Assembly: GCA_032718475.1 (NCBI GenBank)
Contig: JAUCBJ010001599.1
Location: forward strand, 1-44,078
Source of the DNA: Nemertoderma westbladi
Lineage: Eukaryota; Animalia; Xenacoelomorpha
Direction: 5' to 3'
DNA length: 44,078 nucleotides
Shown here: one piece after another, positions 8,718 to 44,078 of the stretch
Position numbering within the stretch: the stretch's first letter is position 1
Layout of the letters: every line of letters starts with the position of its first letter
Position numbers and translations under genes: made by a program
Notes under the pieces: generated by a model
What the model saw: only the letters and a program-made list of their open reading frames with translations
The model's database searches: none
What the model was told of the DNA's origin: nothing

Positions 8718-9378
8718 CAGGGGCGGATTAAGGACTAAGGACATGGCGGCCCGGGTGCACTTTTCCACTGCTCCCCCCCCCCCCCCACCCCTGTTTTGAC
8801 TGAGTTTGAGTTAGATATTTATTATAAGTCTCAGTATAATATTGAAAAAACAATCAAAGTTTACTCGAAGTGCGCCTTTGTAGCTTTCCGACTAGCAAAG
8901 TCCGCCACAATTTCGACGAACTCCATTTCGCGCAGCATGTCTCGCTCCATGCTCATCACTGCATGTTGAGGCGCGTCTAGCTCATAACTGACCGCAGCAC
9001 TGACTTTAATACGCCCCCACCTTAAAGACTTTAATATCTTTGAAAAGTTTCTATTTGTTTCTGCCACTACGAGCTGACTGTTTCACCCCATGTAAAAAGA
9101 AATAGATGTTCTGGAATGAATATTTATGACATGGGTGATGGGCTAGTAGATATAAATAACGATAGATAATAGCATTTTTGTTACAAGCCATATAGGTGAT
9201 TTAATAACAAAATGGTTTGTAAGTGGCTTATTCCGTTAAAAAATAATGCAATAAATAATGTTGAAAATAATTTATTTTATATATTATATTGCCAAGGTGC
9301 CTGCGGCACCTTGGCAACAAAAGCACCTGGCGGCCCGGGTGCACCTGCACCCATTGCACCCCCCTTAATACGCCCCTG
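8718..9378 (-). mobile_element. Internally deleted hAT (Tip100-like) DNA transposon
   Basis: TIRs CAGGGGCGGATTAAGG / CCTTAATACGCCCCTG and 8-bp TSD tgtagtgt/cgtagtgt. Remnant of the transposase C-terminus (RNFSKIL...SMERDMLREMEFVEIVADFASRK) at 8861-9067. Confidence 0.88.
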
Positions 9379-11480: not shown

Positions 11481-12668
11481 ACGCTTACAGGTACAGCAAG
11501 TTAGTGCAGCAGCAAACATCGGTTGGCTGCACCACGCTTACAGCAGGTTAGTGCAGCAGCACACATCGGTTGGCTGCACCACGCTTACAGCAGGTTAGTG
11601 CAGCAGCACACATTGGTTGGCTGCACCACGCTTACAGCAGGTTAGTGCAGCAGCAAACATCGGTTGGCTGCACCACGCTTACAGCAGGTTAGTGCAGCAG
11701 CACACATCGGTTGGCTGCACCACGCTTACAGCAGGTTAGTGCAGCAGCACACATCGGTTGGCTGCACCACGCTTACAGCAGGTTAGTGCAGCAGCACACA
11801 TCGGTTGGCTGCACCACGCTTACAGCAGGTTAGTGCAGCAGCACACATTGGTTGGCTGCACCACGCTTACAGCAGGTTAGTGCAGCAGCAAACATCGGTT
11901 GGCTGCACCACGCTTACAGCAGGTTAGTGCAGCAGCACACATCGGTTGGCTGTACCACGCTTACAGCAGATTAGTGCAGCAGCACACATCGGTTGGCTGC
12001 ACCACGCTTACAGCAGGTTAGTGCAGCAGCACACATCGGTTGGCTGCACCACGCTTACAGCAGGTTAGTGCAGCAGCACACATCGGTTGGCTGCACCACG
12101 CTTACAGCAGGTTAGTGCAGCAGCAAACATTGGTTGGCTGCACCACGCTTACAGCAGGTTAGTGCAGCAGCAAACATTGGTTGGCTGCACCGCGCTTACA
12201 GCAGGTTAGTGCAGCAGCAAACATTGGTTGGCTGCACCACGCTTACAGCAGGTTAGTGCAGCAGCACACATCGGTTGGCTGCACCACGCTTACAGCAGGT
12301 TAGTGCAGCAGCACACATCGGTTGGCTGCACCACGCTTACAGCAGGTTAGTGCAGCAGCAAACATTGGTTGGCTGCACCACGCTTACAGCAGGTTAGATC
12401 AGCAGCAAACATCGGTTGGCTGCACCACGCTTACAGCAGGTTAGTGCAGCAGCAAACATTGGTTGGCTGCACCACGCTTACAGCAGGTTAGATCAGCAGC
12501 ACACATCGGTTGGCTGCACCACGCTTACAGCAGGTTAGTGCAGCAGCACACATCGGTTGGCTGCACCACGCTTACAGCAGGTTAGTGCATCAGCAAACAT
12601 CGGTTGGCTGCACCACGCTTACAGCAGGTTAGTGCAGCAGCAAAGATTGGTTGGCTGCACCACGCTTA
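11481..12668. repeat. 47-bp minisatellite, ~25 copies
   Basis: Unit ACGCTTACAGCAGGTTAGTGCAGCAGCACACATCGGTTGGCTGCACC. Confidence 0.98.
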
Positions 12669-14880
12669 TGAATACGCAGCATGAATACGTTGCTGGACAT
12701 ACATTGAGTGAATGAATACGTTGCTGGACATACATTGAGTGAATGAATACGTTGCTGGACATACATTGAGTGAATGAATACGTTGCTGGACGACATACAT
12801 TGAGTGAATGAATACGTTGCTGGACGACATACATTGAGTGAATGAATACGTTGCTGGACATACATTGTGTGAATGAATACATTGCTGGACGACATACATT
12901 GAGTGAATGAATACGTTGCTGGACTTACATTGAGTGAATGAATACGTTGCTGGACGAACATTGAGTGAATGAATACGTTGCTGGACGACATACATTGAGT
13001 GAATGAATACGTTGCTGGACGACATACATTGAGTGAATGAATACGTTGCTGGACATACATTGTGTGAATGAATACATTGCTGGACGACATACATTGAGTG
13101 AATGAATACATTGCTGGACATACATTGAGTGAATGAATACGTTGCTGGACATACATTGAGTGAATGAATACGTTGCTGGACGAACATTGAGTGAATGAAT
13201 ACGTTGCTGGACACACATTGAGTGAATGAATACATTGCTGGACGACATACATTGAGTGAATGAATACGTTGCTGGACATACATTGAGTGAATGAATACGT
13301 TGCTGGACATACATTGAGTGAATGAATACGTTGCTGGACATACATTGAGTGAATGAATACGTTGCTGGACGACATACATTGAGTGAATGAATACGTTGCT
13401 GGACATACATTGTGTGAATGAATACATTGCTGGACGACATACATTGAGTGAATGAATACGTTGCTGGACTTACATTGAGTGAATGAATACATTGCTGGAC
13501 ATACATTGAGTGAATGAATACGTTGCTGGACATACATTGAGTGAATGAATACGTTGCTGGACGAACATTGAGTGAATGAATACGTTGCTGGACACACATT
13601 GAGTGAATGAATACATTGCTCGACGACATACATTGAGTGAATGAATACGTTGCTGGACATACATTGAGTGAATGAATACGTTGCTGGACATACATTGAGT
13701 GAATGAATACGTTGCTGGACATACATTGAGTGAATGAATACGTTGCTGGACATACATTGTGTGAATGAATACATTGCTGGACGACATACATTGAGTGAAT
13801 GAATACGTTGCTGGACTTACATTGAGTGAATGAATACATTGCTGGACGAACATTGAGTGAATGAATACGTTGCTGGACGACATACATTGAGTGAATGAAT
13901 ACGTTGCTGGACATACATTGAGTGAATGAATACGTTGCTGGACACACATTGAGTGAATGAATACATTGCTGGACGACATACATTGAGTGAATGAATACGT
14001 TGCTGGCATAATTTGAGTGAATGAATACGTTGCTGGACATACATTGAGTGAATGAATACGTTGCTGGACATACATTGAGTGAATGAATACGTTGCTGGAC
14101 ACACATTGAGTGAATGAATACATTGCTGGACGACATACATTGAGTGAATGAATACGTTGCTGGACATACATTGAGTGAATGAATACATTGCGGACGACAT
14201 ACATTGAGTGAATGAATACGTTGCTGGACACACATTGAGTGAATGAATACATTGCTGGACATACATTGAGTGAATGAATACGTTGCTGGACATACATTGA
14301 GTGAATGAATACGTTGCTGGACTTACATTGAGTGAATGAATACATTGCTGGACGAACATTGAGTGAATGAATACGTTGCTGGACGACATACATTGAGTGA
14401 ATGAATACGTTGCTGGACATACATTGAGTGAATGAATACGTTGCTGGACGAACATTGAGTGAATGAATACGTTGCTGGACAAACATTGTGTGAATGAATA
14501 CGTTGCTGGTCATACATTGAGTGAATGAATACGTTGCTGGTCATACATTGAGTGAATGAATACGTTGCTGGACTTACATTGAGTGAATGAATACGTTGCT
14601 GGACATTCATTGAGTGAATGAATAAGTTTCTGGACATACATGAGTGAATGAATACGTTGCTGGACGAACATTGAGTGAATGAATACGTTGCTGGACACAC
14701 ATTGAGTGAATGAATACGTTGCTGGACTTACATTGAGTGAATGAATACGTTGCTGGACACACATTGAGTGAATGAATACGTTGCTGGATATACATTGAGT
14801 GAATGAATAAGTTTCTGGACATACATTAGATGAATACGCTGATGACATACATTGAGTGAATAGGTAGTCGGTCATACATT
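12668..14880. repeat. 31/34-bp minisatellite, ~70 copies
   Basis: Unit ATGAATACGTTGCTGGAC(GAC)ATACATTGAGTGA, decaying at the right end. Confidence 0.98.
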
Positions 14881-15580: not shown

Positions 15581-16112
15581 AAAGATGATGGAGACACAGA
15601 GAGGATGTAAAGATGATGGAGACACAGAGAGGATGTAAAGATGATGGAGACACAGAGAGGATGTAAAGATGATGGAGACACAGAGAGGATGTAAAGATGA
15701 TGGAGACACAGAGAGGATGTAAAGATGATGGAGACACAGAGAGGATGTAAAGATGATGGAGACACAGAGAGGATGTAAAGATGATGGAGACACAGAGAGG
15801 ATGTAAAGATGATGGAGACACAGAGAGGATGTAAAGATGATGGAGACACAGAGAGGATGTAAAGATGATGGAGACACAGAGAGGATGTAAAGATGATGGA
15901 GACACAGAGAGGATGTAAAGATGATGGAGACACAGAGAGGATGTAAAGATGATGGAGACACAGAGAGGATGTAAAGATGATGGAGACACAGAGAGGATGT
16001 AAAGATGATGGAGACACAGAGAGGATGTAAAGATGATGGAGACACAGAGAGGATGTAAAGATGATGGAGACACAGAGAGGATGTAAAGATGATGGAGACA
16101 CAGAGAGGATGT
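15581..16112. repeat. 28-bp minisatellite, 19 identical copies
   Basis: Unit AAAGATGATGGAGACACAGAGAGGATGT. Confidence 0.98.
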
Positions 16113-17029
16113 AAAGGATGTTGGTTTTAAGAAAATCACCGCCTTGACCGGCTAACGCCCATAATTTGAAGCTCAATTAGAATTGTTACAGTTTAGAATA
16201 TTAATTGGGTGGAAAATCCAAGGAATTATGTGAACCCATAAAGAAAGTAAGTGGTAAGTTGATAAATTGACCACCTGAGATTAAGTACCATAAATTTATA
16301 TATTTGCGACACCTGATACCAAAGGACTATCGATCAAATTCTCCAACGCATGAACACATAAGATTCATTGAATTATAGCAGCTAGAGTCGCCCAATCTAT
16401 AAAACAGATGGCTAATTAATATTCATAAATGTCCCTTAAGGGAAACCTTATCGGCTTAGTTACAGGGTATGCCTAGATTGACTACAATGTACGATTGCCA
16501 TTCAGTATAAATTTAAGTCAACTAAATCTAACAGTACGCTAGATATACAAGGATGGGCAATCTTTGGAGTGGAACATTTTCATTAACTAAGAATTCCGCT
16601 ATATTTTTGACAGGCTGCTTTTTGACAGGGCATTGACCCCTGGAAGAGCGAGCTATGTACCCCGTATCTGTATAATATATGGAATAAGGGTTGCACGTAA
16701 AACTAATCGCAAGTCGTAATTTCGTAATTAGATACCGCGGAGGAATTAGTAAGTAGGAAATCCCCAGTATCTGGCCCATATCACCGTAATTTGCCTGGGG
16801 ATTACTCCATAATTAGGGGAATTATTTTGAAGACGCGATAACAAGTGAGATATACCACCTTCATAAAATACAGGGAACTTACATTAAAAGGGAAACTGCC
16901 TCATAAAGCTCCTAAGTTCAAGATAGAGACTTTGAATTTATGATCTTAATATAAGATAATAATGGGGGGGGATCAATCACCAATTATAGGCCAAAAATTT
17001 CAAAAAACCTTTTTTGTTAGATTTTTGAC

Positions 17030-20724: not shown

Positions 20725-21072
20725 TTGAAGGACTGTGACCTTGTGCATGGCAACGTGGTGTATCCGAAGTTGGGATTCTTCGACTCGAGTTTCAGCAGGT
20801 AGAGTTGTACCAGACTGCCCATGGCTTCTCGGATAACCTCCAGGTGGTAGCATGGATCACGACGTTGCTCAGCGACCGGTCGACGCGACGTAGAGGGTTC
20901 ACCCTCGGGGGAAGCGAGTGGGGGTTGCCCTGGTAGCGAGTCAATCACTTTGCTTGCCGTTTCGTCCGTTGTAGGCTGGGGAGCTACAAATTTGAAGGTC
21001 TTTACATCGGCGTATTCCAGTAGTTCAGCTAGCGCTCTGTTTACGTTATTATGGCAGGAAATAACGGCGGCA
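20725..21072 (-). CDS. RAPGEF1: RAPGEF1/C3G-like exon (SAAVISCHNNVNRALAELLEYAD...)
   Basis: Acceptor TTCAG, donor GTGGGT, phase 2-2. Resembles C3G SALSSCYSRVYQSLANLIRWSD. Confidence 0.8.
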
Positions 21073-22396: not shown

Positions 22397-23060
22397 CCAA
22401 GGACTTCTAGAACATAGCATATATTCATAGTATATATATATTAGTATATACATAGTGTATATATTAGTATATTCATAGTATATATATTAGTATATACATA
22501 GTATATATATTAGTATATACATAGTATATATATTAGTATATTCATAGTATATATATTAGTATATACATAGTATATATAATAGTCTATACATAGTATATAT
22601 ATTAGTATATACAAAGTATATATATTAGTATATTCATAGTATATATATTAGTATATAGTATATATATTAGTATATACATAGTATATATATTAGTATATTC
22701 ATAGTATATATATTAGTATATACATAGTATATATATTAGTATATTCATAGTATATATTAGTATATACATAGTATATATATTAGTATATACATAGTATATA
22801 TATTAGTATATTCATAGTATATATATTAGTATATACATAGTATATATATTAGTATATACATAGTATATATATTAGTATATTCATAGTATATATATATTAG
22901 TATATACATAGTATATATATTAGTATATACATAGTATATATATTAGTATATACATAGTATATATATTAGTATATACATAGTATATATATTAGTATATACA
23001 TAGTATATATATTAGTATATACATAGTATATATATTATAATGTGTTCTAGAAGTCCTTGG
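22397..23060. mobile_element. MITE-like element whose interior is a 23-bp AT-rich minisatellite
   Basis: Perfect 18-bp TIR CCAAGGACTTCTAGAACA; interior (CATAGTATATATATTAGTATATA)n; no clear TSD. A lone related end lies at ~34698. Confidence 0.7.
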
Positions 23061-24032: not shown

Positions 24033-26280
24033 TGATTGTGTGCTACTCTCCAACTAGTGTTGCCCCTGTAGAGGAGGTGGAAAATTTCTACCACAATCTA
24101 CAAGCAGCAACTGATGGAGTGGATTAGCATGCATTCTTAACATTCCTGGGATACTTTAATGCAAGTCTGCATCAATCACCTACATCGCCCTGGGTCTATA
24201 GCGATTGTGTTAACCGAAATTCCGTCCATCTTCAGGATTTTATCTCTGGAAATGGATTGTTTTCGGCTGGAACCAAGTTCAAGAGCTATACTGCCTTCAC
24301 AGAAGCAGTTAAGTTAACAGCTGCAGAAACAGTTCCTGTATACCCTCGACACAGGAAAAGGGCCCCCTGGACTGACAACAAAATTCAGAAGTGCCGAAAT
24401 GACCTCTATAAGGCGCAGAAAGAGTCCCGACTCATACAGACTACAGCGGCCAAGAATGCAGTTAAGGCTGCATCTAGGTCCCTGAACAGGCAGCACTCTG
24501 TTAATTTACAGGAGCTAATAAACCAACAGGTTGATGCCATCAATGATGCTGACGACAGCAGGCAATCATCCCAGGCATGGAAATCGATCAACTTGCTTAC
24601 TGGGTGGAAAAGCCAACCAAACAAACAGCAAGGTTAAAGCTGAATCACGAGCCGATCGCCTCAATGGTTGGAAGGCCCACTTTGAAAAGCTCCTCAATAA
24701 TGACAGGGTACTGCCTGATAACTTTATAGAAGTAAAAGTGTCTGAGTCTGTACTCCCAGATATTCCCATTGGCGATATCTCCTTTGCAGAAGTGAAGGCT
24801 GCTGCAAAGAGCATTAAGACCAATCGTGCCAGTGGAGTAGATGTTGTTCCCCCTGAGGTCTTTAAAATACCTGAGTGTTTAAAGCTCATCTATCCCATCA
24901 TAGTAGACAAAACTAGACATGTACCGAACAACAAGAGTCCCACAAGAAATGAAAACAAATAAATTGGTGCCAGTTCCCAAGAAGGGCAACCTAACACTCT
25001 ATGGTTCTTTTCGGAGAATCTAGATTCCGTAAAGGTCGTGGGACCATGGAGCCCATTTTGGCACTTAGAAGGATAATTGAAGAGTTATCAAAAAAGAAAG
25101 ACAGGCATCTGGCTGTTATCTTTGTTGACTTCTTCAAGGCCTTTGATTCAGTCTCTCGCTCACGTATGTTCAGCATACTTTCATTATATGGGATTCCTGA
25201 TGCAATTATTGCAGCAATTAGATCAGTATACGATGGTTCGACAACATTTGTGACTACTGTTGACGGTGACACAGAACCATTTGAAGTGTTATGGGGCGTC
25301 CTCCAGGGAGACACACTTGCACCATTCTTGTTCATAATTGTGGTTGACTATGTTCTACGCATGTCCTTAGATCATCATAATGATGATGGAGTGATGATAA
25401 CTCCACCTACTGGCTCCAGAAGTCGAGGAAATCCTGCCAAGTAAATAACTGATCTAGACTTTGCTGATGACTTAGGAGTACACTCAGAATCACTAGAGGT
25501 TGCCCAACGGCTCCTCAGCTCATTAGAACATGCTGCTTCTAGTGTTGGTCTTTTTATTAACTCCAGAAAGACCAAAATTTTGACAGTTAACTTTGAAAGT
25601 CCTCAGCAAGTCTCTGATCGGATGAGCATAAGTTCAAAAGATGGTATGCTTGAGCATGTGGATGACTTCTGTTACCTGGGATCATGGATCCGGAAGTCAG
25701 GTGAGGACCTTCGAATACGTAAGGGAAAGGCATGGGCAGCCTTGAATAGGATTTCCAGGATTTGGAAGTCCCCGAGAATTAATCGGAAACTTAAGGTCCG
25801 ATTATTTAGAGCAGCAGTAGTTCCAGTACTCCTCTATGGGAGTCCATGCTGGGCTCTAACTGCTGAGGACACCAAATCTCTGGATGGCACATTCACAAGA
25901 ATGCTACGCCGGGTTCATTGTGTCAAGTACAATGCACACATCTCCAACCAGACACTATATAACATTGGAGGTGTCTCATTGGTTCCCCCAAGCTTGACAC
26001 TAGAACAAAATCGCATCCGCTTTGCAGGACATTGCTTTCGCCGTGAGGACCAGCCAGTGCATAATCTTGTACTTTGGCAGCCTCATGGAGTGAATAGGCA
26101 TGGTGGACAGCCCATGACTTTCTTGAGACGCATCTTAAAGGACACTGGCCTTGAAGATGCGGATGATCTAGCAAATGTCATGGGTGATAGGGAGTTGTGG
26201 CGGCGCAATTTTGTCGACAAGCCGGCACAGCATTCTTAAAAATGCAGCTGCAATGCAGCATGCCGATCATAGTAGTAGTA
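24033..26280 (+). mobile_element. Degenerate RTE-clade non-LTR retrotransposon
   Basis: APE remnant (CYSPTS), VPVPKKGNL, FVDFFKAFDSV, GVLQGDTLAPFLF, DLDFADD, FCYLGS, LLYGS and a short (TAG)n tail. Has an in-frame stop at 25442, frameshifts and internal deletions. Confidence 0.93.
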
Positions 26281-27940: not shown

Positions 27941-30900
27941 TAATTGGGATTCCGGTCATGTAAGTTTAATTGTAATGGAAGCATGTAAAATCATTTGTCT
28001 ATCTATATTGTCAGCCATAAATTTATAAATTATATGGAAGAAACATGATGGACTGTCTTAACCTTTCCTGGGGACGATATTTTTACACAAAATCCTCAGT
28101 GATGCAAACAGGCAACAAGGCGTCCTTTAATACAGACCATGCGGCCGCGATTTAGGCAAAATTTGCGTAGGCTGATACTTTTACAATAGTATATATAGGC
28201 AATTCAATGCTTATTATGGGTAATCAGACAATGTTTGTGTATCTTATTAGTTGAAATATACTTCAGTAAACTATATTTTGTAATTTATTAAATTTGTACT
28301 GATAATTAAACATTTCAAATGGTTCGCTGACATATAAATCGGATGACGTTTGGGTGGATCTGGAATCTGGCAAGATGGTACTGCAGAGGTGGCGTTATCT
28401 GTTATATGTTTACTTTATATTATTATTAACGGTGTGGTAGGTACTTTATATTATCTATCAGGAACTTTATGTAATTATTTTGTTATTGCCTACCCAATAT
28501 TCCTCACCACAGCGTGAAAAACATATCAATGAAACTGTTTCTTCACTAATTAAATAGATTAAGTAACAATCCTGAGAATTAATCGTAAATCATAAAATTA
28601 AACGTGTGACTCCTCCCCTGCAGATAATTGTCTCAGTTTTAAAGAGTCGCATTGGCAGATAAGTTAAGGGCACTGCCAACCTCATTCAACGCACGGGCTG
28701 GAACAATGAAACATGGAACGAGCTTAAAAACAAAGGATGGCCCTCCGAACAAACAATGGATCATAATGACCAAGAGAAAAGTCGCCAGTTTATCTGGACG
28801 ATCCACTGGAGTGGCCATTACAGGCCAAGCATTGACCCAACGTGGTACTGTAGGGATGGTTTTACATAACTTCGAGAAATTAAACACAATTTTGTCGATT
28901 TTGAGTACCACTCAAAAAAAGCTTTACTCAATACTTGTAGCGAATATGGAATCAACAGATAAATAAACCCATTCTTCGGAGCATTAAGAATTGAAACTTG
29001 CAGAAACTTATATTAGTCTGCTGGTAATTGTTAAGGTGGCGATGGCGAACTATCTTTTCAATTTCTGATCAGGCGAATGCGAACGGTATGGAAAGGAAAC
29101 TCTTTTCCAACCAAAAATACGATGTGAAGTTAATCCCAGCACCCAGCCACCCCGTAGTGGCGTTGTTCTTTCGAAACTCTACCGTCCACTGAGCGACTAC
29201 GTAGACCTTCTCTCTATTGGCTCATCGCAAATACAGCAATAATACCGGTAGTCATCGTGAGTATGAGTAACAATGTCCATTGTTATATACCAAATTGACA
29301 ATGGTGGCTGTTATGACGAGGCGGATGGAGAGGGGATACAGGACATGGGTGTAACGAAAACACTGACGGAGGATGGGGACGGACGGAAGCACCTCCGCGA
29401 ACGCGAACGACTTCACCGTGGTCTCCGGTCAATACTTTCGACAAACGCCAATGTTCTTCGTTACACAGGCAATAATGTTAGGTAGCGCCCGCAGAAAGGC
29501 ACGCATTTGATTCGAAGACGAAAACCTTTCCAAGGTTCTGTTCCTCGAGAGTGGCGTCGCAATTCCATCAGCAGTAGCCGCCACAGCATTATTTATGAGG
29601 CATTATACTGTTCTAATTCCATTATAAATCAGTCTACGTAAAACTAATACTGTAGGCCTAAAGAAAACTTGAGTTTAATAAAGCTAATTAACTAATTAAA
29701 GTAATATATTCTGTCAATCAATTAGTCTACCTACAACAACTAGCATAGCTGCATAGCACAATAGCATTGTACTGTTAATAAACAGGGGCATCAAGTTGGA
29801 TTATTGATCACAATAAAATTTACTAAGGTTCGGTATGACCTTTTATTCCATATTTGGAAACAGCTGATAGCTGATTAATCTCAAAAATAAAACTGTAACC
29901 TGTCTAATGATTTTAGTTTATTGTTTCGGTTAGAATGGCGTGCCAATATAAACTACCTCTTTGCCTTAATTTATAAATTTAACTTTAGTGACGAGATATT
30001 AATTCGCCGAGATGGGACCCCTTGGACTTCACCCATCTCATGACCTGGGGGAACCCCCAGCCCCCCCCCCCCCCCCCCCCCCAGTCTCAAACTACGTCAT
30101 ACAAACTCTGAACAACCCAGGAAACAAGAAAGTAATACGAAACCAATAAATTTAATTGTAATTATGGGATTTTATGTTTACAATTCCATGGAAATTGCGA
30201 TCCAAGAAAATCTTGTAATATTGCAGAATGGAACTGCGTCGTTGTCTGCATATAAAAGGGGAAATAAAGGCAGCATATATCTAAAGAGGAAATGATTGCG
30301 GCGAACAATCGAACATGCAAACCCATAACCACCTAGGCGCGACAACAAGGTAGAAAACCCTCGCAATATCAATCGGCATTAAACATCTCAGTAGCAAAAC
30401 GCAATGCAATAAAGCGTTCAAATCACAACCAACAAAATTATGTTGGAATTCCTAAGCAAATATGTCGGGTGATTAATTCAATTCAAATTGACATAAATAT
30501 CATGCGACACAAGATAACTGTCAGTTCAGATGCGCCTCACAACACTGCCAAAGGCGTTTAACAACGTAAAGTAAGTGGTATAACATTACCGAGATCATTA
30601 GATGATTATTATCTCATCTGATAAGAAACATCATTTAACACCAGTTCTTTGGAGAATCGCGATTAATTAATGTACAATGACGCATTGGTAGCGCATGTAC
30701 CGGTAATAACTTATTGAAAGGCATTTTAAGCTGTTCCTCCGAATGTGATAATAAAGTTATTTGGTTGAATTCGCCGAATGTAAATGGAGGTTATTTGGAA
30801 TGGATGCCGAGAAACAAATCATTACAGGGGCATCACAAGCTTGGAATAAAACCATGCGATGCATTACGGATGATCAATAAAACAGAGAGACATCATTCCG

Positions 30901-31097: not shown

Positions 31098-31212
31098 CTT
31101 TGCGACCCTTCCACGTAGCACGCGTTTAGGATATTGTATGTCTCTAATATTGTATCCAACAAGGTGTTAGCTGTTCCAGGTAGCAATTCGGTTGTTCCTT
31201 TATCAACCACAT
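31098..31212 (-). CDS. RAPGEF1: RAPGEF1/C3G-like exon (DVVDKGTTELLPGTANTLLDTIL...)
   Basis: Acceptor TGTAG, donor AG|GTAC, phase 1-2. Resembles C3G IVDK...EMLPGSASKVLEAIL. Confidence 0.85.
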
Positions 31213-31432: not shown

Positions 31433-31669
31433 CATCAAAATATTTCAATGAAAGACGGACGCCTTTTTCAGCGGTGCGTAGATTGTCTATATCTCTGATA
31501 TAATGGGGTCGGTTGTGTCCTGTAATACCGTTACCAGCTCCAGTGGGGGAGGGGAGTGACAGTGATGCCTTGCCCACTGATGAAGGGGTGGGGGACAGGC
31601 TGCGGTGAATAATCTTGTTCTTAAGTAGGGTTGGTATGCGTGCGACTTTCCCAACAGGCGATATCGATT
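31433..31669 (-). CDS. RAPGEF1: RAPGEF1/C3G-like exon (ends LRTAEKGVRLSLKYFD)
   Basis: Acceptor TTGCAG, donor GTAAG, 237 nt open, phase 1-1. The end resembles the C3G N-terminal helical region (EKEVVSALRYFK). Confidence 0.8.
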
Positions 31670-33256: not shown

Positions 33257-34018
33257 CAGGCCACTTTAATTTGTAGAATCCAGAAAATAAATAAATTAAG
33301 CTAAATTCTAGTCCTCCAAAATCTTAATTTGTAGGTTAATTTCTAGCCCCTATTTTCTGCTTAAAAACGCTTAATAAACTCGTAATTAGCATCGAATGAG
33401 TGTATTATAAGTTCCAACAAACAGACATACAGAAACACTCAAGCCCAATTGAATTTTGAGTTTTTTTTTATATTTTAGTATTAAAAGTTCTTCAAACTGC
33501 TGCGAATCAAAGCACTACTCTAGGGAAAAAATTACTCGAACTGCTTCGATTTTCGTTTTTAATAACCCGAACTCCAGTCTCCCTTTCTGACTCCTTATTG
33601 TTGTCCGTTTTACTTCCACCAGCGCTTCTAAAGTGCCGATGTTATAACAACTGTTAATAATAATTATTTATTTATAAACAAACCACACCAAACACTAATC
33701 CGTACTTATATTTTATTTCATAGTTGTGAACCTTGTTTGTATATATACTATTCATTTTATTGAGTTTACTAATAATTAATGAATAATATAAATTGTCGTC
33801 TTACCCCGTTGGGGTGTCTCTTAATAAAAAAAGTGCCGATGTTATCAGATGTCAAGTTCAGCTACACCCTGTTTGTCATTTTTGGTGTAATTGTTTAGTA
33901 AAAGCGCCTCTAGTCAAGAAAAAACATTATTTTTTTACCCTTATTTTCTAGTACTCCAAAATCTTAATTTCTAGCTAATTTCTAGATTCTTGAAAATTCT
34001 ACAAAATAAAGTGGCCTG
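33257..34018. mobile_element. Non-autonomous hAT-type element (MITE)
   Basis: TIRs CAGGCCACTTTAATTTGTAGAAT / ATTCTACAAAATAAAGTGGCCTG and a perfect 8-bp TSD ACAATACA. Confidence 0.88.
33646..33829 (+). mobile_element. Short retroposed 3' end nested in the hAT MITE
   Basis: Ends in AATAAAAAAA and is flanked by a 16-bp direct repeat AAAGTGCCGATGTTAT (33630-33645, 33830-33845). Confidence 0.75.
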
Positions 34019-34879
34019 ACAATACATGTACTTTGAACTCTGAAGACCGGTTTACGTGGGGCAACATTTTGAGCAACTTGGTGAGCAACTCATGTTACCA
34101 ATGAAATTGCTCCTTATAAACACGAAGCTGATGTAAAAAAAATTGCAATGTTTAAACTTCGAACAAGTTAAGTTTCTCAAAATAAAGTTGCTGGTTGCTT
34201 GCCAAGTTTGTCAAAAACGTGTAACCCGGACATCATCTAGCCAAATGATAAAGGAATCGCTTTACAATACAGGATGCATACTAGACATAAACACCTGACC
34301 ACCTGACAAGGAAATGATAAGATAGCTATAACAAACAAGAGATTTATACGAAAGAGCTACAATGTGAAAGCGGATCACCACTAGTCCTTGAAGTATAGCA
34401 GGCCAGGGAAATATAGATAGAAATGGGACAATTATTAACCAATGACAAACAGCATGTAGTAGGCCCAGTAGCCATTTAGAAACAGAGGGAAGAAGGTTAC
34501 TTCGGTTTACACCAAAGAAATTCCATTGGCCAGTAATCATTTAATGGAATTCCGAAGTTGGGAGCTTTCTAATACTTCACATCATACCTGAGCTGTGCTG
34601 CAGTGTGCCTGAGTAGCACTAGCACACGCTATTTTTTTTTATTGAATGCAGTTTTAATTTTAATTAATTTATTAAAATACAATAATTGCACATAATCAAG
34701 GACTTCTAGAATACAGTATATTGGGCGTTGCACTTAGCTCCCACTGTAGTTTTTGAAGGCTGATTTTTTCTTTGGTATTTTAATACTACTTTAATCTGAT
34801 TTTAATTCTGATGTTTTTCTTAATTTTTTTTTTCTTGCATAATATGCCATGTTGATTTTCAAATTTAAGTAATTAGTTA

Positions 34880-35500
34880 TTATTCCAAAATTGTAACATT
34901 ACTCAACGCCGTTAGTATTAACAGCGAGTTGTTATTTAGCACTTTACAACCTTAGAGGACATTACAGCATTGTATTGGCCTGTACAATTAGTATTATATA
35001 TAGTGGGTGTTGTAATGTCCCATGTTTATGTAGTAACCAATGACGGCGAGCTGTAAAGTTACGGCGTCAATGGTTACCACGTAAACAATAGTGGAAATTT
35101 GCCTGACAGCCAGATAGGCCTACTGCATTACCTAACGGTAGGCGGGGTATAGCTATTAATAACCAGTAGGGCCTAGCTATATTATTATAACATGGCTCCA
35201 AACGCCACCATAAATACAAGCTAACTTATTTATAACATAATTTATGTCATTTTTAAATTTATTTATACAGCAACTAATTTAATTTGTGCAGTTTCTATCA
35301 CTTATAATATATATACAATCATTTCGTAATGTTACAATTTTGGAATAAAACAACATACTTGTTGCAAAGAGTCTTTACAGTGTTCTGATCCTCGTGGCTT
35401 TAATTTCGCTCACTCACTAACGTTCGTTGGTGTAACAAAGCCACTCGGATCATCACACTATAAAGTGCTACTTAACACACAAGTATGTAAATAGTTATTA
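34880..35500 (+). mobile_element. ~620-bp dispersed double-hairpin repeat, copy 1
   Basis: Colinear with the reverse complement of 39789-40393. Internal inverted repeat TTATTCCAAAATTGTAACATTAC plus a terminal ~135-bp hairpin. Confidence 0.85.
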
Positions 35501-37044
35501 TGTAATTTAAAAAAATTAGCTACCATCAAATAGACTTACTTCTGCCACAATTGAAAAATCACGAATTACTTAATATTTGGAGACCCACATAGCAAGCATA
35601 TGCATGAAGAAAAAATTGAGATAGAGCATCAGAAAATACTTTTATTCTTAAATCGTTACTTTTTTGCTCAAATATACCTCAAAATCTAGAGAAAATGGAG
35701 TATTTTTAAAATAAAACAAAATATTTTTGGTGGAATTTCTTAAGGGGAGTAGTACAGGCATTTTTTCCATACAAACTACTATTAAGCCTCGGTACACTTT
35801 AAGAACACATCAGATTACTTTATAGGCCAACTGTTCCTGAATTCCAACCGGAATTTAACTGGCTTTCAGGTAATCCAATTGGTTTTTTGAATTTCTCAAG
35901 ACATTCAAATTTTCTATAACTCAAATGGCAGTTTTCACTTTTAATGAAATCTTATTTGTCTGTATGTCTGTCTGTCGGTCTTTCTGACTATCCGACAATC
36001 TGTCCGTCATATATAAGAAAAGGGCATACAATCTAGTTAAAAGTTTAGCTAGATGGGTTTTCCTGGTCGCAGAATTAATTTCGAGTGTCAGTTTTAACAT
36101 TTGATGACTTCCAAATTGTCTGTTTGGCAGTCAATCTGCCGGTTATATTTTGACGCACAGACTGACATGACAGGCATACAGACAGAAACGACGAGCCCAA
36201 ATTTGAATATTGAGATCAGAAATGAAGTAACCGACCACGAAAACCCATATATGTAATTTTTTTAGACAGATAGTTTGCTTTTTATTGACGGACAGACATA
36301 CTAACGGACAAACCGACAGTCAATCAGACAGACAGCCATATCTCGTAAAGTAAGACAGATCTTACTAATTTTGGAATCTTGATAAAAATTTGCTCTAGTT
36401 GAAATAGAAAAAAAATTTGATTTGCACGAAAAAATTTGCACGAAATTATAGCAAAATAAAAGCTCATACTGAAAAGTTATTGCAACTATAGTGTCTGTAA
36501 GGCGTGCTCCAAAACGGAACTCAATATCCAATATAGTTTGTGTAGTTAAGCGGCTCTCTAGTTACGTAATAAATATTCGAGAACACTAACTTATTTAACT
36601 TTGAGTAAGGCAGTAACAGGAGTTGAAAATTACAATAATTGGATTTGGAATCGCTGTAACTATGGAAGCAATATAGTAAAATACAGAAATACTGCAGTTC
36701 AAATTATCTTGTAACACTTGAGTGAAATATTTAATTCCGCCACTCGCCGCTAGAGGGACACAAAAAAATTTACAATTTCAATTTTTGTTGCTCTTAGGCC
36801 TTCCCCACGTTTGCTGAACACAACATAACAGTGATATTGACCTACAACACGAAGTTTGAGCTGTTTAAAAAAAAACTCTCCTGAGGGGGTACCCCCCCCC
36901 CCCCCCCCCGCGCCCTTAAAGAATGACATGAATGAGCAACAAAAAAGTACAAATTTATGAATAAAATTACGTACCGGGTATTACATAGGTAATCATTGTA
37001 GCAGGTACCGTCAACCGTAGATGATAATAGGCAGATAAGCATAC

Positions 37045-37090
37045 CTGATTTATAAACTGGGACCGGATGTTCGGAGGAAATTGCTGCCAT
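37045..37090 (-). CDS. RAPGEF1: RAPGEF1/C3G-like, candidate first coding exon (MAAISSEHPVPVYKS)
   Basis: ATG at 37090 and donor CAG|GTATGC in phase 1, matching the phase-1 acceptor at 31669. No homology support; based on splice signal and phase only. Confidence 0.6.
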
Positions 37091-38680
37091 CTAGCTAACC
37101 GTCAGTATCTGTCAGTCTGTATTGAATATCAATCACTGGCGCGCTGACGCCAGAATGCCAGGCCAAGCTGCAACAAGGCCAGCTTGCAACTCTCTTCCAG
37201 TCTTCTATCGAGAGTCTATCAAGCTAGACAGCTAGACTACCTCCATCCATTCCACATTGCTCCAGACTGCCAGACCTGTCTGCCTGTACTCTGCAGTAGG
37301 CTACACTTCTGACTGTCTGGTATGCCTACACCTACGGTACCATACTGCCATACAGTCCCCTTGCCACTTCAGCACTTACAGCCTTACGCTTACAGCCCTT
37401 TTCAGCAGTTCAGGTTTTCTACAATTTGCTGACCCTGACCTGACCTGGACTCCTGAAGTATTCCCTTCCGGCTTCTGCCTGTCTGCCACTACCTGACTGT
37501 GACTCCCTTGATGCCTTGGCCTTTTGGCAGCTTTGTTGGTGCTAAGCCAAGCTACTGAGCTAGGTGCTAACCAGAAACCAGCTAACGTTTTTGCTGCTTT
37601 GTTCAGTTGATAGTTTTGTAGCGGAACCGAGTCGGAGCGGTAGATTTGAGATCCAGCTATAGGCTAGGGCCTATCACAACTGCATCAATCATGACTACAT
37701 TGTGATATGCAATCTGACTACTGTTCGCGCCTACCGTACCTGCCTACACATACCTGCCCTGCATACAACTGCAAACTGTACAGATGTACCTCAGTAGCTT
37801 ACCACTGTTTGACTTGCGGTCTTGCGCTGTGACTGTGTGCAGGTGAGTTGCGACGTGCTGGCTGGCGTGCAGTTTGCATTGCGGACACAACTGTCAACTG
37901 TTATACTGTTGACTGGTTGAATGTTGTAAATGTTATACTGTCAACTGGCATGATCTGACTGCCAGAATGCTGACATGACTGCATGACAGCATGACACTAT
38001 ACAGATATAACACAGATCATGCCTGCATGCACCATGCTGCCATGCAGATACAGACTGACATAGCTGCAGAGAGTGCTGGAGTGCTGAGTACCGGTGGTAT
38101 CTGGGTATTGGAGTACTGGCTGACTGGAGTAAGGCTAGTACTGTAGTATGTAGTACAGTAAGGCTGTAACAGTGTAAGGTCAGAAGGTAAAAAGTCTGTC
38201 GCAGTCGTTGAGTCGTTCCGTTGGGTAGCGCGTAGCGGTAGTCCGGTAGGCCTAGTGTTGATTGATAGCCTACCCTGCTACCCCTAAATGCTAATGCATA
38301 ATACACTCAACAGCTCAATGCAGTACTGCTGTACCTGTGTACCGTACTGCTGTAGTTTAGTGACATTTTCTTTGACTGGTTGGCCTACTGTGTACTGCTG
38401 TACTGCCGTACCCAGTTATCAGACAGTGAAGTCCGCCAGACTGTCAATGTTATCATTATCTGTGGTCAACGACCTCTCGAACAAATTACTTATTCAATAA
38501 AAATTAGGCATATTCTGGAAGTAACTACTTTCCTTCTAAATACTTCCCCACCAAGACGTAGTACATCAGTATACCGTTCACCGTTAAGCGTAACTAATAG
38601 CCCGACCGAAACGTGAAAACCTGGTATACTGTATAGTGTATATAGTGTATACTGTAGTATATACAGTAGTGCAGTACGCA
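37091..38680 (-). promoter_or_regulatory. Probable RAPGEF1 5'UTR/promoter, saturated with short duplication footprints
   Basis: Lies immediately upstream of the candidate ATG, is GC-richer than its flanks, and has at least 16 NNNNN-CWG-NNNNN motifs. Promoter identity is positional inference. Confidence 0.5.
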
Positions 38681-38938
38681 GTACGCAAAAAGCCAAGTGG
38701 GGTGATGTTTCAGCCTTCTTGTAGGGTTAATGTTAAATTAATATTGAAAAATTAGGGCCTAGAAGTAAGTTTTACTGTAAACTGTGTTCCTAAATTTAGT
38801 TTATTGATTTGGTTAGAAAAGCCTACTTTAAAAGGTACATTATACTGTATGGTGAATATCGAAATTAAGTATTCGCGAAATTAAGTTAATATGTTAAAAT
38901 AGGCTGAAACGACACCCCAATTGGTAATATGCGTACAG
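38679..38938. mobile_element. Old Tc1/pogo-like MITE
   Basis: Imperfect ~35-bp TIRs CAGTACGCAAAAGCCAAGTGGGGTG..TTTCAGCCT / AGGCTGAAAC..CACCCCAATTGG..TGCGTACAG. Confidence 0.55.
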
Positions 38939-39788
38939 TACTACCAACGTCAATCAGTCATAATATGATTTCTCTACATTACAATTGTGGGGGGACCGAA
39001 CTAAAAATCATTCGTCAGAGAAGAGAGTGTGTAATCCCTGGAAAGCCGAATAAAACGTTAATGTTTTACTTTATTTTTTTTTCATAATGATTCAATGCTA
39101 CTATAGATAGAGTGGGCACTAATTACAACTTTCTTTCTAAGGAAAGTTGTATTGTGTCACCTAGCATTCCAAATTTGAAAAACTTTTAACTACCTTGGAA
39201 CATGTTTGCTCAACCTCACAACTACGTACCAACCTGAATCCAACTACAGTAACTACAAACTATTACTAAAACACGTTCGTGTGGCCTTCGCGCAGCACGA
39301 GGCTCAGATATGAGATATAGATTAATATTGAGCGATTCTACTGTATCACAAACTCGGTATCTAAGAAATTTAACCAAACACCAATAAATCAAAGAGAGAT
39401 AAAAGCCCCCCCCCCCCCCCCCCTCTTAACCTCCCTAGCGACCCAATTTGTAAGAAATATAAAACTTACCTTATGCTGATAGTGTTGATACTGAGATATT
39501 AATTTATCATGTCAACACCTCAACGAAATTATTTACCTAATTATTCTAAAGAATCATGATTAAGTACTCGGCCAATCATTTTGTAAGCTAAACACAATAA
39601 CCAAGCTGGCTTATTAGTCTGGCTCATTACAATGTTGCCTTTGAGTAGTGATGAGGTGGTTGGACTGGAGGCTAGCTGGGAAGACTAGCCTTCACAGCTA
39701 GGCTAGCAAGCATACCAAGTAATGAGGGAGCTATGGAAGTATAGCTGGGGACAGGGCATTTTAATAAGTTAATTACGTTTAGATCAAT

Positions 39789-40393
39789 TAATAACTATTT
39801 ACATACTTGTGCGTAAAGTAGCACTTTACAGTGTGATGATCCGAGTGGCTTTGTTACACTAACGAACGTTAGTGAGTGAGTGAGTGAAAATAAGGCCACG
39901 AGGATCAGAACACTCTAAAAGTACTTTGCAACAAGTATGTATGTAGTTTTATTCCAAATTTTTAACATTACGAAATGATTGTACATATATTATAAGTGAT
40001 AGAAACTGTACAAATTATATTAGTTGTTGTATAATTAAATGGAAAAATGACATAAATTATGTTATAAATAAGTTAGCTTATATTTATGGTGGCGTTTGGA
40101 GCCATGTTAACAACATAGCTACTGGTTATTAATAGCTATACCCCGCCTACCGGTAGGTAATTCAGTAGGCCTATCTGGCTGTCAGGCAAATTTCCACCTA
40201 TTGTTTACGTGGTAATCAATGACGGCGTTAAGTAATGTCCACTAAGGGGACATTACTTAACTACTAACACCAAATACAATACTAAATGTACAGGCCAATA
40301 CAATGCTGTATTGTCTTCTAAAGTTGTAAAGTGCTAAATAACAACTCGCTGTTAATACTAACGGCGTTGAGTAATGTTACAATTTTGGAATAA
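39789..40393 (-). mobile_element. ~605-bp dispersed double-hairpin repeat, copy 2 (inverted)
   Basis: Reverse complement of 34880-35500 with scattered substitutions and one indel region. Confidence 0.85.
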
Positions 40394-40489
40394 AAACACA
40401 TTTCTTAAAGCAAATCTCTTGAACTAATTAAAAACTATAATGGAATGGGGTATGGGGAATATAGCTGTATAATTGTTACACCGATTGAG

Positions 40490-40771
40490 TTAGTGGTACC
40501 TGTATGACAAGCTCGCTTACTTTCGTGGCTCGCCCCACATTCTCACCGTAAGTTCAACAGTCTTGATGTGGGGCGAGCCACGAAGTGAGTGAGCCTTAGC
40601 GTAGTGGTACCATTAATCAACCTGTGGGGCGAGCCACGAAGTGAGTGAGCCTTAGCGTAGTGGTACCATTAATCAACCTGTCGTTCTGTCGTTCTGTGGG
40701 GCGAGCCACGAAGTGAGTGAGCCTTAGCGTAGTGGTACCATTAATCAACCTGTCGTTCTGTCGTTCTGTCG
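40490..40771. repeat. Hairpin whose right arm (~57 bp) is triplicated
   Basis: GCTCGCTTACTTTCGTGGCTCGCCCCAC pairs with GTGGGGCGAGCCACGAAGTGAGTGAGC. The latter plus flank occurs three times, with (TCGTTCTG)n after the second and third copies. Confidence 0.85.
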
Positions 40772-41051
40772 CGTTTTTTTTCAGTATTTTATTTTAAACG
40801 TTAATAACTCGGCCAATCCTTGATGAAATCTATCCAAACTTGGTACACATGTTGTTTGGCAAAAGTTTGAAAATTTTCCAAGTAGAATTTGCGTGGGGCC
40901 TTCGTGCAGCATCAGTGTAACTGTTATTGCAGTTATAATAAATTTATTTATCCCAAATTTAAAATGCGTTAAATTATTATTACTGTAGGATAAATCAGCT
41001 GGTTTTCTGACAAATTTTGCAATTCTGCATGCACCATGTGTACCGGTACTG

Positions 41052-41773
41052 TTATTATTATTATTAGTCAACACTCCTTTATTACATCATATTATAACTA
41101 TTTGTTGCACGTGAAGTAAGATAAAACATAATTAGTGGAGGGAGAAAAACCACCCAGGCGTATCAGCGCTTACGGGGGTTAATAAAAAACAAAATTTAAA
41201 ATCACTAAACATTAAAATTTACATCAGCTTAAAAAAAAAAATTAAAAAGAAATACGAATAAAATGAACTGTACATACCGTAGAACCCAGAAACGTTTATT
41301 ACGAGCGACCGATTAGTGGTCGATTAAATTTGCAAATTGGTAGGAAATCGTGGTTCTTGAGCTTGGTCGCAAAACTGACAAGTGTTCTGGAATCTACTAT
41401 ATCTTCTGGCAAATCATTCCAGACTGGCACAACACGGCTGGTAAATGAGTTTTTAGATATAATTAATCTACATCTAGGTACATTTAACTTGTGAGAGTGG
41501 CCACGCAGACCCGGACGGTTAGTATAGCTAAATAGCGCACCAAAATCTAAATCAACTAAATTTCTCTCTATACTGAAAAGTAACTTTAGATCAAAAATAT
41601 ATCGTCGGACTTCCAGCGGTTGTAAATTAAGGTGTTGTATTCTATGTATGTACGGTTTGTAACTAATATTGCAACGGCTATACAATCTACGTGTAAAATA
41701 TCGCTGGACACTCTCCACAAGATCAATACTGCCTAATGAAAAAGGCGACCATACTGGTGTACAGTATTCAAAC
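41052..41773 (-). mobile_element. 5'-truncated CR1/L2-group LINE 3' end
   Basis: EYCTPVWSP..VESVQRYFTRRL..LRGHSHKL..FTSRVVPVWNDLP, followed by a 3'UTR, AATAAA and a (TAA)n tail. Confidence 0.9.
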
Positions 41774-42069
41774 TGTCAGGCTGTACTCAATCCCTGAATC
41801 GAGAATCCTGCTAGGGTGCATTTATAGTCAGATGCCGTCCGATCCGATCCGATCCGATGCATTTCGGCAATTATTGTAGCTACAACTGTCAGACTGCAGA
41901 CTGTACAAGCCTAGCTGCTTAGGCTAGGCCTACTTCTGTTTTGCCTAACACTGAACGCAGTCTGGGTATGACTATTGCTGTATTGGCCTATTGCATTAGG
42001 CTATTGTATATCAGTATATGGCATGGCAGTACTGCAGTATGCAGGTATGGCAGTACTGCAGTACACAGT

Positions 42070-42946
42070 ATGGGATCATTCGTAGCTCTGTAGCTGACTG
42101 TGGTGTTCAGAAGGAAATCGGACGCGCGTTGGACTGTTGGATGTCCTGGAATGGAGTCTACCGACCAACTTGCAGGGTGAGGCTGTCCCTCTGCAGCTCT
42201 GATCCTGGGCGGTGGAGACTGTGCTGATGGCGGCGGAAGCGGGAAGACCGGGGCATTCTGTATCCCGATACTACAGCTGGTCCATGAAACTCTACGGTAC
42301 AAACTCCGAGATGGAAAACTCGATGGGAAATCGGGAGGAAGAACTAGGCCTACGAAATTTCAGTTGAACTCATTCGATAGAGCGATAGAGGTGACCAGTT
42401 GGCCATCTCCCCGGACGGTTGCTGTGTCATGCGCGTGGCCAGAGGAGTTGGCACGGTACCCGGACGACTAAAGGAATAGTCGGATCCGGTCGTTTCGTTA
42501 CTATTCAGCTATTACGAGGCGACGGTAAAGGACGAGGTGCGAGGGCCCATGCCGGGTTGGTTGGAGCACCGGAAGCGCGACACTCGATAGATCGGGACTG
42601 ATAAAAATAGTTTTGGCTTCGGAGGAAACGGTAAGAAGTGTTTCGGGCGGCATTTTGACGACTATGGACAACCATATGGACTAGGCGACGTGATCGGTTA
42701 TCGGATCGATCTGGATGTGGGCGCAATTGGGTACCGGTACAGTAAAAACGGAAGTGATCTCGGGAAAGCTTTCGACAGTTCGAGATTCCCGCTAATTTAC
42801 GCAAACTCCCGTTATTCCTGTATTCCCGCAGTCTGTGGTCTGTCGGTATCTTTAAAGAATGCTGAAATTATGTTTATTTTCGCCGAATTTATCCGTTTAT
42901 CTGCGCATCTTCTTTCCGGGTACACCATTGTATCCCGGGCGCCGTT
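42070..42946 (+). pseudogene. DDX1: DDX1 (DEAD-box helicase with SPRY insert) 5' fragment, multiply frameshifted
   Basis: Repaired translation reads [54 protein letters not shown]...DGLLCHAR..WHGTRTTKG..YYE..DEGPCRVGWST..GTDKNSFGFGGNGKK..SKNGSDLGKAFEIP..LKNAE. It carries more than 10 indels, including a deletion in motif I. Confidence 0.93.
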
Positions 42947-43120
42947 TTGTACCTACAATGTACCAAGTTGTGTAACTTTTGTACCCATTGTACCAAGTTG
43001 TGTACCTTTTGTACTTATTATGTACCAAGTTGTGTACCTTTTACACCTACTATGTACCAAGTTGCGTACATTTTGTACCTATTATGTAACAGTTGTGTAT
43101 GGTCTTGTACCTATTTATGT
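42945..43120. repeat. Degenerate ~31-bp minisatellite directly after the DDX1 fragment
   Basis: Unit approximately TTTTGTACCTATTATGTACCAAGTTGTGTACC. Confidence 0.85.
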
Positions 43121-44078
43121 TTCCTAAAGTAAAGATGTGTAATCTGATTATTATTATGATTGCTACATAACATGGTATAGAGACTATCTTATCTTATAAC
43201 CGTTATCAACAGTGTTGTAGTCATAATTTGCAACGTTTCATTGAAATAATCACTTGAAATATTCGAATACATTCTACCCATAATAATTAATACTAATTAT
43301 TGTAAAACTATTTTTCTATGCGGAAATCCAGACTGAAAGTCTCTCTCTTGATATCTGTTGTTCCTTTGCGTCAATATAATTAGAGTGTATTTAACAAATT
43401 TATTGTATCCGTTGAAATGTATTTGTTAAACAATAATTTAGTTGTCATGATTTTTAAGTAAGATTAGGTTAATTAAATAAAGCCTTTATAAAATTATTAT
43501 TATTATCCTGGGGGAAACTTTACAGCTTTATCGAAACTCTATAGCTCCATGGTAAGTATAGCTCCACGAAACTCTATGGGGGGGGGGGGGGGGGGGGTAG
43601 TATACTCCAGGTATTAAACTAAACTGATCCTTTTCTTATATATGATGGACAGATTGTCGGATAGTCAGAAAGACCAAATTTAATATACTATCTAGTTAAG
43701 TTTTTGAATTTATTTTTTGAAATATACCAGAACATGACTAGCTATTTTATTTTTAAAAAATAATGTTCTAGAACGAATATTTTTTGAAATATTTAAAAAA
43801 TTATCAAACACTAATGTTTAGTAACTTTATTTTTTCATATCAATAAAAAGCTTGTCTTGCAAGGATTCCAAATACAACTAATTACCCAACTAATTAGTAT
43901 AAACAATTTCGTGGGAGGGTTTACGACGTACCTCCAGTTCCCCCTCCCTCCTCCAAGCCAATTACTAGCTTTACCTGTATCATGGACGTAGGGAGCATTT
44001 TTGAAAAGCGGACCATTATCATTTAAATAATTTTTTTTATATTTATTATAACTAACCGACCACAGGACTATGTTAATT

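Follow-up and report, generated by a model that had tools for sequence, protein, structure and literature searches.

Dense 5-bp duplications spaced by CAG or CTG in the RAPGEF1 leader and in a DDX1 fragment of Nemertoderma westbladi: probable transposon excision scars near a transcription start

The stretch considered here (below, the window) is 44,078 nucleotides (nt) of Nemertoderma westbladi DNA (Xenacoelomorpha; assembly GCA_032718475.1, contig JAUCBJ010001599.1, positions 1 to 44,078). It contains a RAPGEF1 gene on the minus strand and a broken DDX1 fragment on the plus strand, and the 5' ends of both are crowded with a short duplication, which was searched as the exact unit N5-CWG-N5, i.e., a 5-bp copy, the spacer CAG or CTG, and the same 5 bp again. 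The identity of RAPGEF1 (C3G) is backed by a RasGEF_N domain and by a C3G-like homologue, the latter match coming from one of 170 candidates in a protein search. Contigs of the runs X1, X2, X3 and X4 were compared with the window; X2 and X3 are one sample, and X4 carries the label 'DNA?', yet its record 8 behaves as complementary DNA (cDNA). None of the runs is listed as RNA, which is no evidence in itself, and nothing is concluded from those parts of the window that X4 leaves uncovered. The features relevant to the argument are as follows (UTR, untranslated region; CDS, coding sequence).

38446..38570, minus strand: likely core promoter (function presumed), with no exact unit
38425..38445, minus strand: RAPGEF1 leader exon, 21 nt, from X4 record 8; cDNA 5' end at 38445, in one contig only
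37335..38424, minus strand: leader intron, 1,090 nt; donor GT, acceptor CG in the window allele
37045..37334, minus strand: RAPGEF1 ATG exon (ATG at 37090, donor GT); 5' UTR 244 nt, CDS 46 nt
31433..31669, minus strand: second coding exon of RAPGEF1 (exon 2), continuing the frame of the ATG exon
31098..31212, minus strand: RAPGEF1 coding exon 3, predicted from a weak homologue match, with phases consistent with exon 2 and with the exon that begins at 21072
37108..38405, no strand: field 1, 25 exact units together with decayed and 7-bp variants
37974..37981, no strand: polymorphic unit (5-bp copy and CTG), missing from the X2/X3 allele
38096..38103, no strand: polymorphic unit (5-bp copy and CTG), missing from the X2/X3 allele
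41772..42069, plus strand: upstream part of field 2, 5 exact units, within a multicopy repeat
42070..42945, plus strand: broken DDX1 5' fragment of approximately 250 initial codons, intron-less; 6 exact units, about 5 further short duplications, depth about 25-35 times single copy
42945..43120, no strand: 32-bp minisatellite at the end of the DDX1 homology; multicopy depth continues to at least 43500

The window contains 43 exact units: 36 in the two fields, 5 elsewhere and 2 in one masked tandem array. A preliminary description of this DNA had proposed two dense fields at gene 5' ends and had named four motifs upstream of the DDX1 fragment. These motifs are indeed present (41973, 42027, 42037 and 42051), and the contrast in density is clear, with 36 units in the 2,757 bp of the two fields together against 5 in the remaining 34,699 bp (tandem arrays excluded). 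In 1000 dinucleotide shuffles field 1 gave a mean of 0.12 and a maximum of 2 units where 25 are observed, and field 2 a mean of 0.03 and a maximum of 1 where 11 are observed. Of the 184 CWG triplets of the fields, 36 are flanked by a duplication of 5 bp, 4 by one of 4 bp and none by one of 6-10 bp; a 5-bp flanking duplication accompanies 5 of the 889 triplets outside. The enrichment of the motif and its sharp length of 5 bp are real.

The spacer is not templated by the flank, since only 4 of the 36 field units are pure 8-bp tandem repeats. CTG and CAG occur in the ratio 22:14, which is compatible with 1:1 (p=0.24). The duplicated 5-mers have a pyrimidine at the start and a purine at the end in 51 of 72 positions (p=0.0005), which suggests a weak target preference YNNNR. 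Events of period 8 have a CWG spacer in 36 of 49 cases within the fields against 4 of 52 elsewhere, and for events of period 7 a spacer CA, TG, CT or AG is possible in 11 of 18. One could do without any transposon and ascribe the units to slippage or to microhomology repair at breaks in open chromatin. No donor element was found in the window, and duplications of periods 5, 6 and 7 and one perfect 8-bp duplication are present besides the exact units, which would suit such an explanation; but a fixed length of 5 bp and a two-valued spacer that is not templated (32 of 36 units are not pure tandem repeats) would not be expected from it, and we consider it very improbable.

The 5' end of RAPGEF1 is given by X4 record 8. 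This contig departs from the window at the donor 37045 and goes on with the sequence of exon 2, so that the candidate ATG exon of the preliminary description is indeed spliced to exon 2 in a contig of cDNA type. It also joins 37334 to 38425, omitting 1,090 nt that begin with GT, and ends at 38445 in 19 loose letters of a template-switch primer. Read on the opposite strand, these letters equal the end of a published cDNA 5' primer (bioRxiv 10.1101/2021.03.17.435796). The primer letters therefore place one cDNA 5' end inside field 1, in the range of 37.1-38.7 kb on which the preliminary description had staked its idea of a promoter. Phases are consistent across the exons 37090-37045, 31669-31433, 31212-31098 and the one that begins at 21072; the acceptor-side junctions read AG, and the donor side reads GT in the first three of the four. 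The 5' UTR exon (37091-37334) has three upstream ATGs, and all three, as judged by eye, run into a stop after a few codons.

Twenty of the 25 units of field 1 lie in the leader intron and 5 in the 244-nt 5' UTR exon. All are downstream of 38445, and none is found in 38446-38680; degenerate 7-bp and TA-CWG-TA units start again at 38573-38680. It is therefore the 5' UTR and the leader intron that were rebuilt, not the core promoter, and the earlier proposal that promoters are rewritten holds for the leader and fails for the promoter proper, where none of the 25 is located. Between the ATG and the leader exon, single units of period-5, -7 and -8 duplications amount to 325 of 1,334 bp, while chance would account for a few percent. 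As was claimed earlier, the RAPGEF1 coding exons are free of exact units (0 in 2,295 bp, the exons being approximately delimited). The former conclusion from this, i.e., that harmful hits have been purged, cannot be drawn: these exons are kilobases away from the start and only 0.33 units are expected there at the background rate, so their clean state says nothing on purging.

Each of X1, X2 and X3 has a single contig over field 1, at single-copy depth. The X1 contig is identical to the window, of which X1 may be the source. Over 1,741 bp the X2/X3 allele has 10 substitutions relative to the window. It also has 5 indel events, the three neighbouring insertion rows at 36984-36989 being scored as one. 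Two of the five are the exact units at 37974 and 38096; a third indel, at 37569, is a unit-like 7-bp one. The evidence comprises one single-copy gene (RAPGEF1), one cDNA contig and two alleles.

The second field requires a different treatment. The stretch 42070-42945 matches human DDX1 (PDB) in all three frames (weakly in frame 2, E 0.63), runs into a stop after 7 codons and loses homology near 42945. The first three changes of frame fall on the units at 42083, 42129 and 42189; when these three are removed by script, the open frame grows from 7 codons to 125. None of the 6 exact units in the DDX1 CDS has a mismatched copy; further duplications of 5, 6, 7 and 8 bp are also found there. The units are insertions: they stand at the frame switches of this dead DDX1 copy, and two of them are missing from the RAPGEF1 allele of another individual.

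The DDX1 piece is a multicopy repeat with largely inherited scars, not the resident gene, for which one would expect a single-copy, open and full-length frame, and this is not what is found. Contig depth, which is no copy number as such, is 11 (X1), 23 (X2) and 32 (X3) for field 1, while the DDX1 piece and the adjacent insertion resembling a long interspersed nuclear element (LINE) exceed it 25-34 times in X1, 11-83 times in X2 and 22-29 times in X3; the ratio recurs in two studies and is taken from single long contigs. The contigs of the piece have 0-3 substitutions over 160-800 bp. X3 record 22 and X4 record 31 cross the units of the coding region with 2 and 10 gap letters, respectively; most of the scars are therefore common to the copies and have one history. 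At the loose end 41811 a relative with a different unit is seen. The preliminary description had counted the DDX1 upstream region among the promoters hit; on these data it is not a resident promoter that was hit independently. The coverage of 42034-43461 by X4 contigs faintly suggests transcription of some copies. The fragment, about 250 codons long, is free of introns, while RAPGEF1 here has many long ones, and it may be derived from messenger RNA. The protein searches gave no intact DDX1 among 92 and 221 candidates, and a look-up in the atlas returned only generic SPRY clusters. No terminal repeat, convincing inverted end or Helitron end was found at the repeated unit. Gene-capturing repeats (Helitron, Pack-type) are known as multicopy units with a 5' fragment of a host gene and a minisatellite, and the DDX1 unit resembles them in this; the ends proper to them, a terminal hairpin with CTRR or inverted repeats with a target-site duplication, were not identified in it. 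No description of a captured DDX1 was found in the titles and abstract beginnings surveyed.

Considering that field 2 lies within such a repeat, one may suppose that both fields come from the interior of repeats which at a later time were taken over as 5' ends, an old scarred repeat having given the RAPGEF1 leader. The unit cluster at 1362-1445 also adjoins a 42-bp array, as this would have it. Field 1 itself does not comply: it is one single-copy contig in X1, X2 and X3 alike, it has no clear relative within the window apart from one marginal 27-nt match to field 2, and it has polymorphic units. We find such an origin hardly probable.

A more serious objection is that the element inserts widely and that its footprints last only near 5' ends, the introns and intergenic DNA being overwritten by a rapid turnover of repeats; the pattern would then reflect the age of the sequence rather than targeting. 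The introns and the gap at 38.7-41.0 kb do consist mostly of high-copy repeats, and field 1 is single-copy. On the other hand, two of the five indel events between the field 1 alleles are units, so the process is recent; all six units in the DDX1 CDS are free of mismatches; and a decayed LINE at 24.1-26.2 kb is without an exact unit. This explanation therefore appears unlikely to us, though less so than the two above.

Several circumstances weigh against the transposon account that is set out below. The RAPGEF1 start rests on one contig from the one run labelled 'DNA?', and a truncated cDNA can also serve as a substrate for template switching. The acceptor of the leader intron is non-canonical (CG in the window allele, with TAG 3 nt further on, in the region 37330-37340). 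Only two 5' ends were looked at, one of them a repeat, and for the latter the caution about depth applies. Small unit clusters are present inside RAPGEF1 introns at 1362, 1445 and 29744. The control on the DDX1 frame is moderate, since 471 of 20,000 random triple removals of 8 nt (skipped draws kept in the denominator) also joined the three blocks. The indels at 37974 and 38096 are not polarised as insertions or deletions. Finally, no intact element with CAG...CTG ends and a 5-bp target-site duplication (TSD) is present within the window.

Concerning the acceptor, an AG in the X4 individual would result from either a substitution or a new unit. A new footprint at 37330-37340 would make a CAG acceptor exactly where one is observed, and so would one substitution. 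Concerning the intronic clusters, units and TA-CWG-TA words are grouped at 1250-1460, next to the 42-bp tandem array, and at 29640-29780, after a GC-richer stretch (29100-29600) without a Pfam match; these are possibly internal promoters or repeats.

We believe that the units are very probably excision footprints of a predicted transposon with CAG ends and a 5-bp TSD. A preference for the region downstream of transcription starts is probable. The complete account, in which a cut-and-paste transposon favours the first 1-1.4 kb downstream of starts and leaves its excision scars there, we regard as likely on the whole. The sequence of events would be the following. Insertion would take place with a 5-bp stagger and a weak preference for YNNNR. 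By analogy with Sleeping Beauty, the cut in the non-transferred strand on excision would lie 3 nt within the element at either end, and the two CAG overhangs would become CAG or CTG as the ends are joined. The outcome would be what is seen here: the units add bases to the dead DDX1 frame, and they differ between the RAPGEF1 leader alleles. Field 1, which on the one contig runs from just downstream of the RAPGEF1 cDNA 5' end to the ATG, would have been filled by hits of this kind. Repeated visits would stretch the leader and the leader intron, the core promoter being spared or purged. The DDX1 piece was presumably scarred mostly once, as a dead transcribed 5' end; judging from depth, it would then have been amplified to about 30 copies, of which one landed here. 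The chemistry of Sleeping Beauty combined with a 5-bp stagger predicts the units, nearly equal CAG and CTG, and some shorter spacers.

Excision of Sleeping Beauty leaves CAG or CTG between two copies of TA, the non-transferred strand being cut inside the element (PMC6943129). The likeness to Tc1/mariner is in these three terminal bases between the target copies, and shorter variants of 1-2 bp are reported as well (PMC6943129). The difference is in the target: Tc1/mariner duplicates TA, while here 5 bp of varied sequence are duplicated. Footprints of ITm elements are the terminal 2-4 nt of the element, which the CAG/CTG spacer fits, the ends being only predicted. Elements of this group encode a DD(x)E/D transposase, and no such element is present in the window. 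In human cells, Sleeping Beauty showed a bias against transcription starts (PMC3499496). In this respect the closer parallels are maize Mutator (Mu) and the Drosophila P element, whose insertions peak at RNA polymerase II (Pol II) starts and are enriched in 5' UTRs, with a steep drop upstream and a gradual one within 1 kb downstream in the case of Mu (PMC7337890). Mu hotspots extend over 0.5-2 kb, 1,395 bp on average, and are mostly constitutive across tissues (bioRxiv 10.64898/2026.05.18.725947). Field 1 resembles them in shape and size; for this one single-copy gene, and going by a single contig, its units crowd into the region next downstream of a Pol II start. Transposons that target starts (type A) are also not enriched at transcript 3' ends; no gene 3' end lies in the window. 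Constitutive hotspots would weaken the idea, advanced earlier, that scar density maps germline promoters, yet only germline events are inherited. The TSDs of Mutator (9 bp) and of the P element (8 bp) are longer than the 5 bp found here, and their footprints differ. In the passages on Mutator and P targeting we met no report of saturating scar fields.

Transib elements have a TSD of 5 bp; the ends of Ginger2 are TG..CA and those of Transib CAC..GTG, not CAG..CTG. In plants, promoter scrambling by cycles of insertion and excision rewrites 5' regulatory DNA as single-allele events, unlike the leader considered here with its approximately 16-20 scars per kb. Ginger2 is similar in its TSD of 4-5 bp (PMC10045372), and hAT5 in its 5-bp TSD and its occurrence in an animal lineage (PMC12730594). 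Excision of hAT elements proceeds via hairpins and adds bases complementary to the flank (PMC3499496), whereas here CWG is constant whatever the flank. The mode of action would best be described as mariner-type excision with Mu-like targeting, and we place the agent in no family. No description of 5-bp/CWG scar fields was found in the titles and abstract beginnings surveyed; tables of the Repbase type may hold a matching family, although passages of the Repbase paper (PMC4455052) contained no table of TSDs. Two metagenome scans gave no match, nor did a bacterial promoter scan of the window, a method not applicable to this animal DNA. The nearest candidate in the window, a CAG-ended element at 33257-34018, has an 8-bp TSD. 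A high-copy element at about 38690-38935 was set aside as the agent by eye, its flanks suggesting a TA or GTAC duplication.

Footprints are usually taken as rare traces, but here about a quarter of a 1.3-kb leader consists of recognisable duplicated units, and two exact units segregate next to 10 substitutions in its alleles. If this is general, 5' UTRs would be subject to a major source of mutation that has been overlooked, a transposon of which hardly any copies stay behind. The scars would then also provide a natural record of insertion preference, a marker of transcription starts requiring sequence alone, and a pointer to a transposase that combines cut geometry and target length in an unusual way. 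It is tempting to go further and to suppose an uncatalogued transposase that is tethered to Pol II initiation and joins a mariner-type cut inset by 3 nt with a 5-bp stagger, its 8-bp scars being a leading class of mutation in 5' leaders throughout the genome; we offer this tentatively, as a possibility that we do not ourselves favour. In such a case leaders would be lengthened and supplied with CAG splice acceptors, duplicate genes would be killed by frameshifts within their first kilobase, and starts could be mapped from the sequence. Footprint-like words in the loose ends of contigs from other loci (X1-2, X3-6 and X2-4/X3-7/X4-9, with short similarity only) hint at scar fields elsewhere in the genome.

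The remaining elements of the window are mostly repeats, the first of them adjoining field 2.

41053..41771, minus strand: 5'-truncated LINE-like insertion with a (TAA)n tail and a 5-bp TSD (41048-52 / 41772-76); no footprints

Judging from motifs only, this insertion may be CR1/L2-like; the corresponding open reading frame (ORF) at 41.3-41.8 kb has no Pfam match. It is young, identical to multicopy contigs, and situated at the upstream edge of field 2; loose ends at 41772 indicate repeat copies without it, and contigs of X1 and X3 extend 2.2-2.7 kb past its truncation point. The decayed LINE mentioned above (24128-26239, plus strand, in a RAPGEF1 intron) has a reverse transcriptase domain (RVT_1) and 0 exact units. 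ORFs at 28.6-29.6 kb gave no Pfam match above the cut-off. The CAG-ended element at 33257-34018 and another at about 8718-9377 (the latter seen by eye) are hAT-like, with 8-bp target duplications. The 5' end of RAPGEF1 is flanked by inverted copies of a very high-copy repeat (34864-35511 / 39778-40409, 85% identical), and there is a further inverted pair at 35977-36023 / 43629-43675 (98%). Long minisatellites with units of 47, 31, 28 and 23 bp occupy parts of the RAPGEF1 introns (11492-14861, 15581-16124 and 22420-23037).

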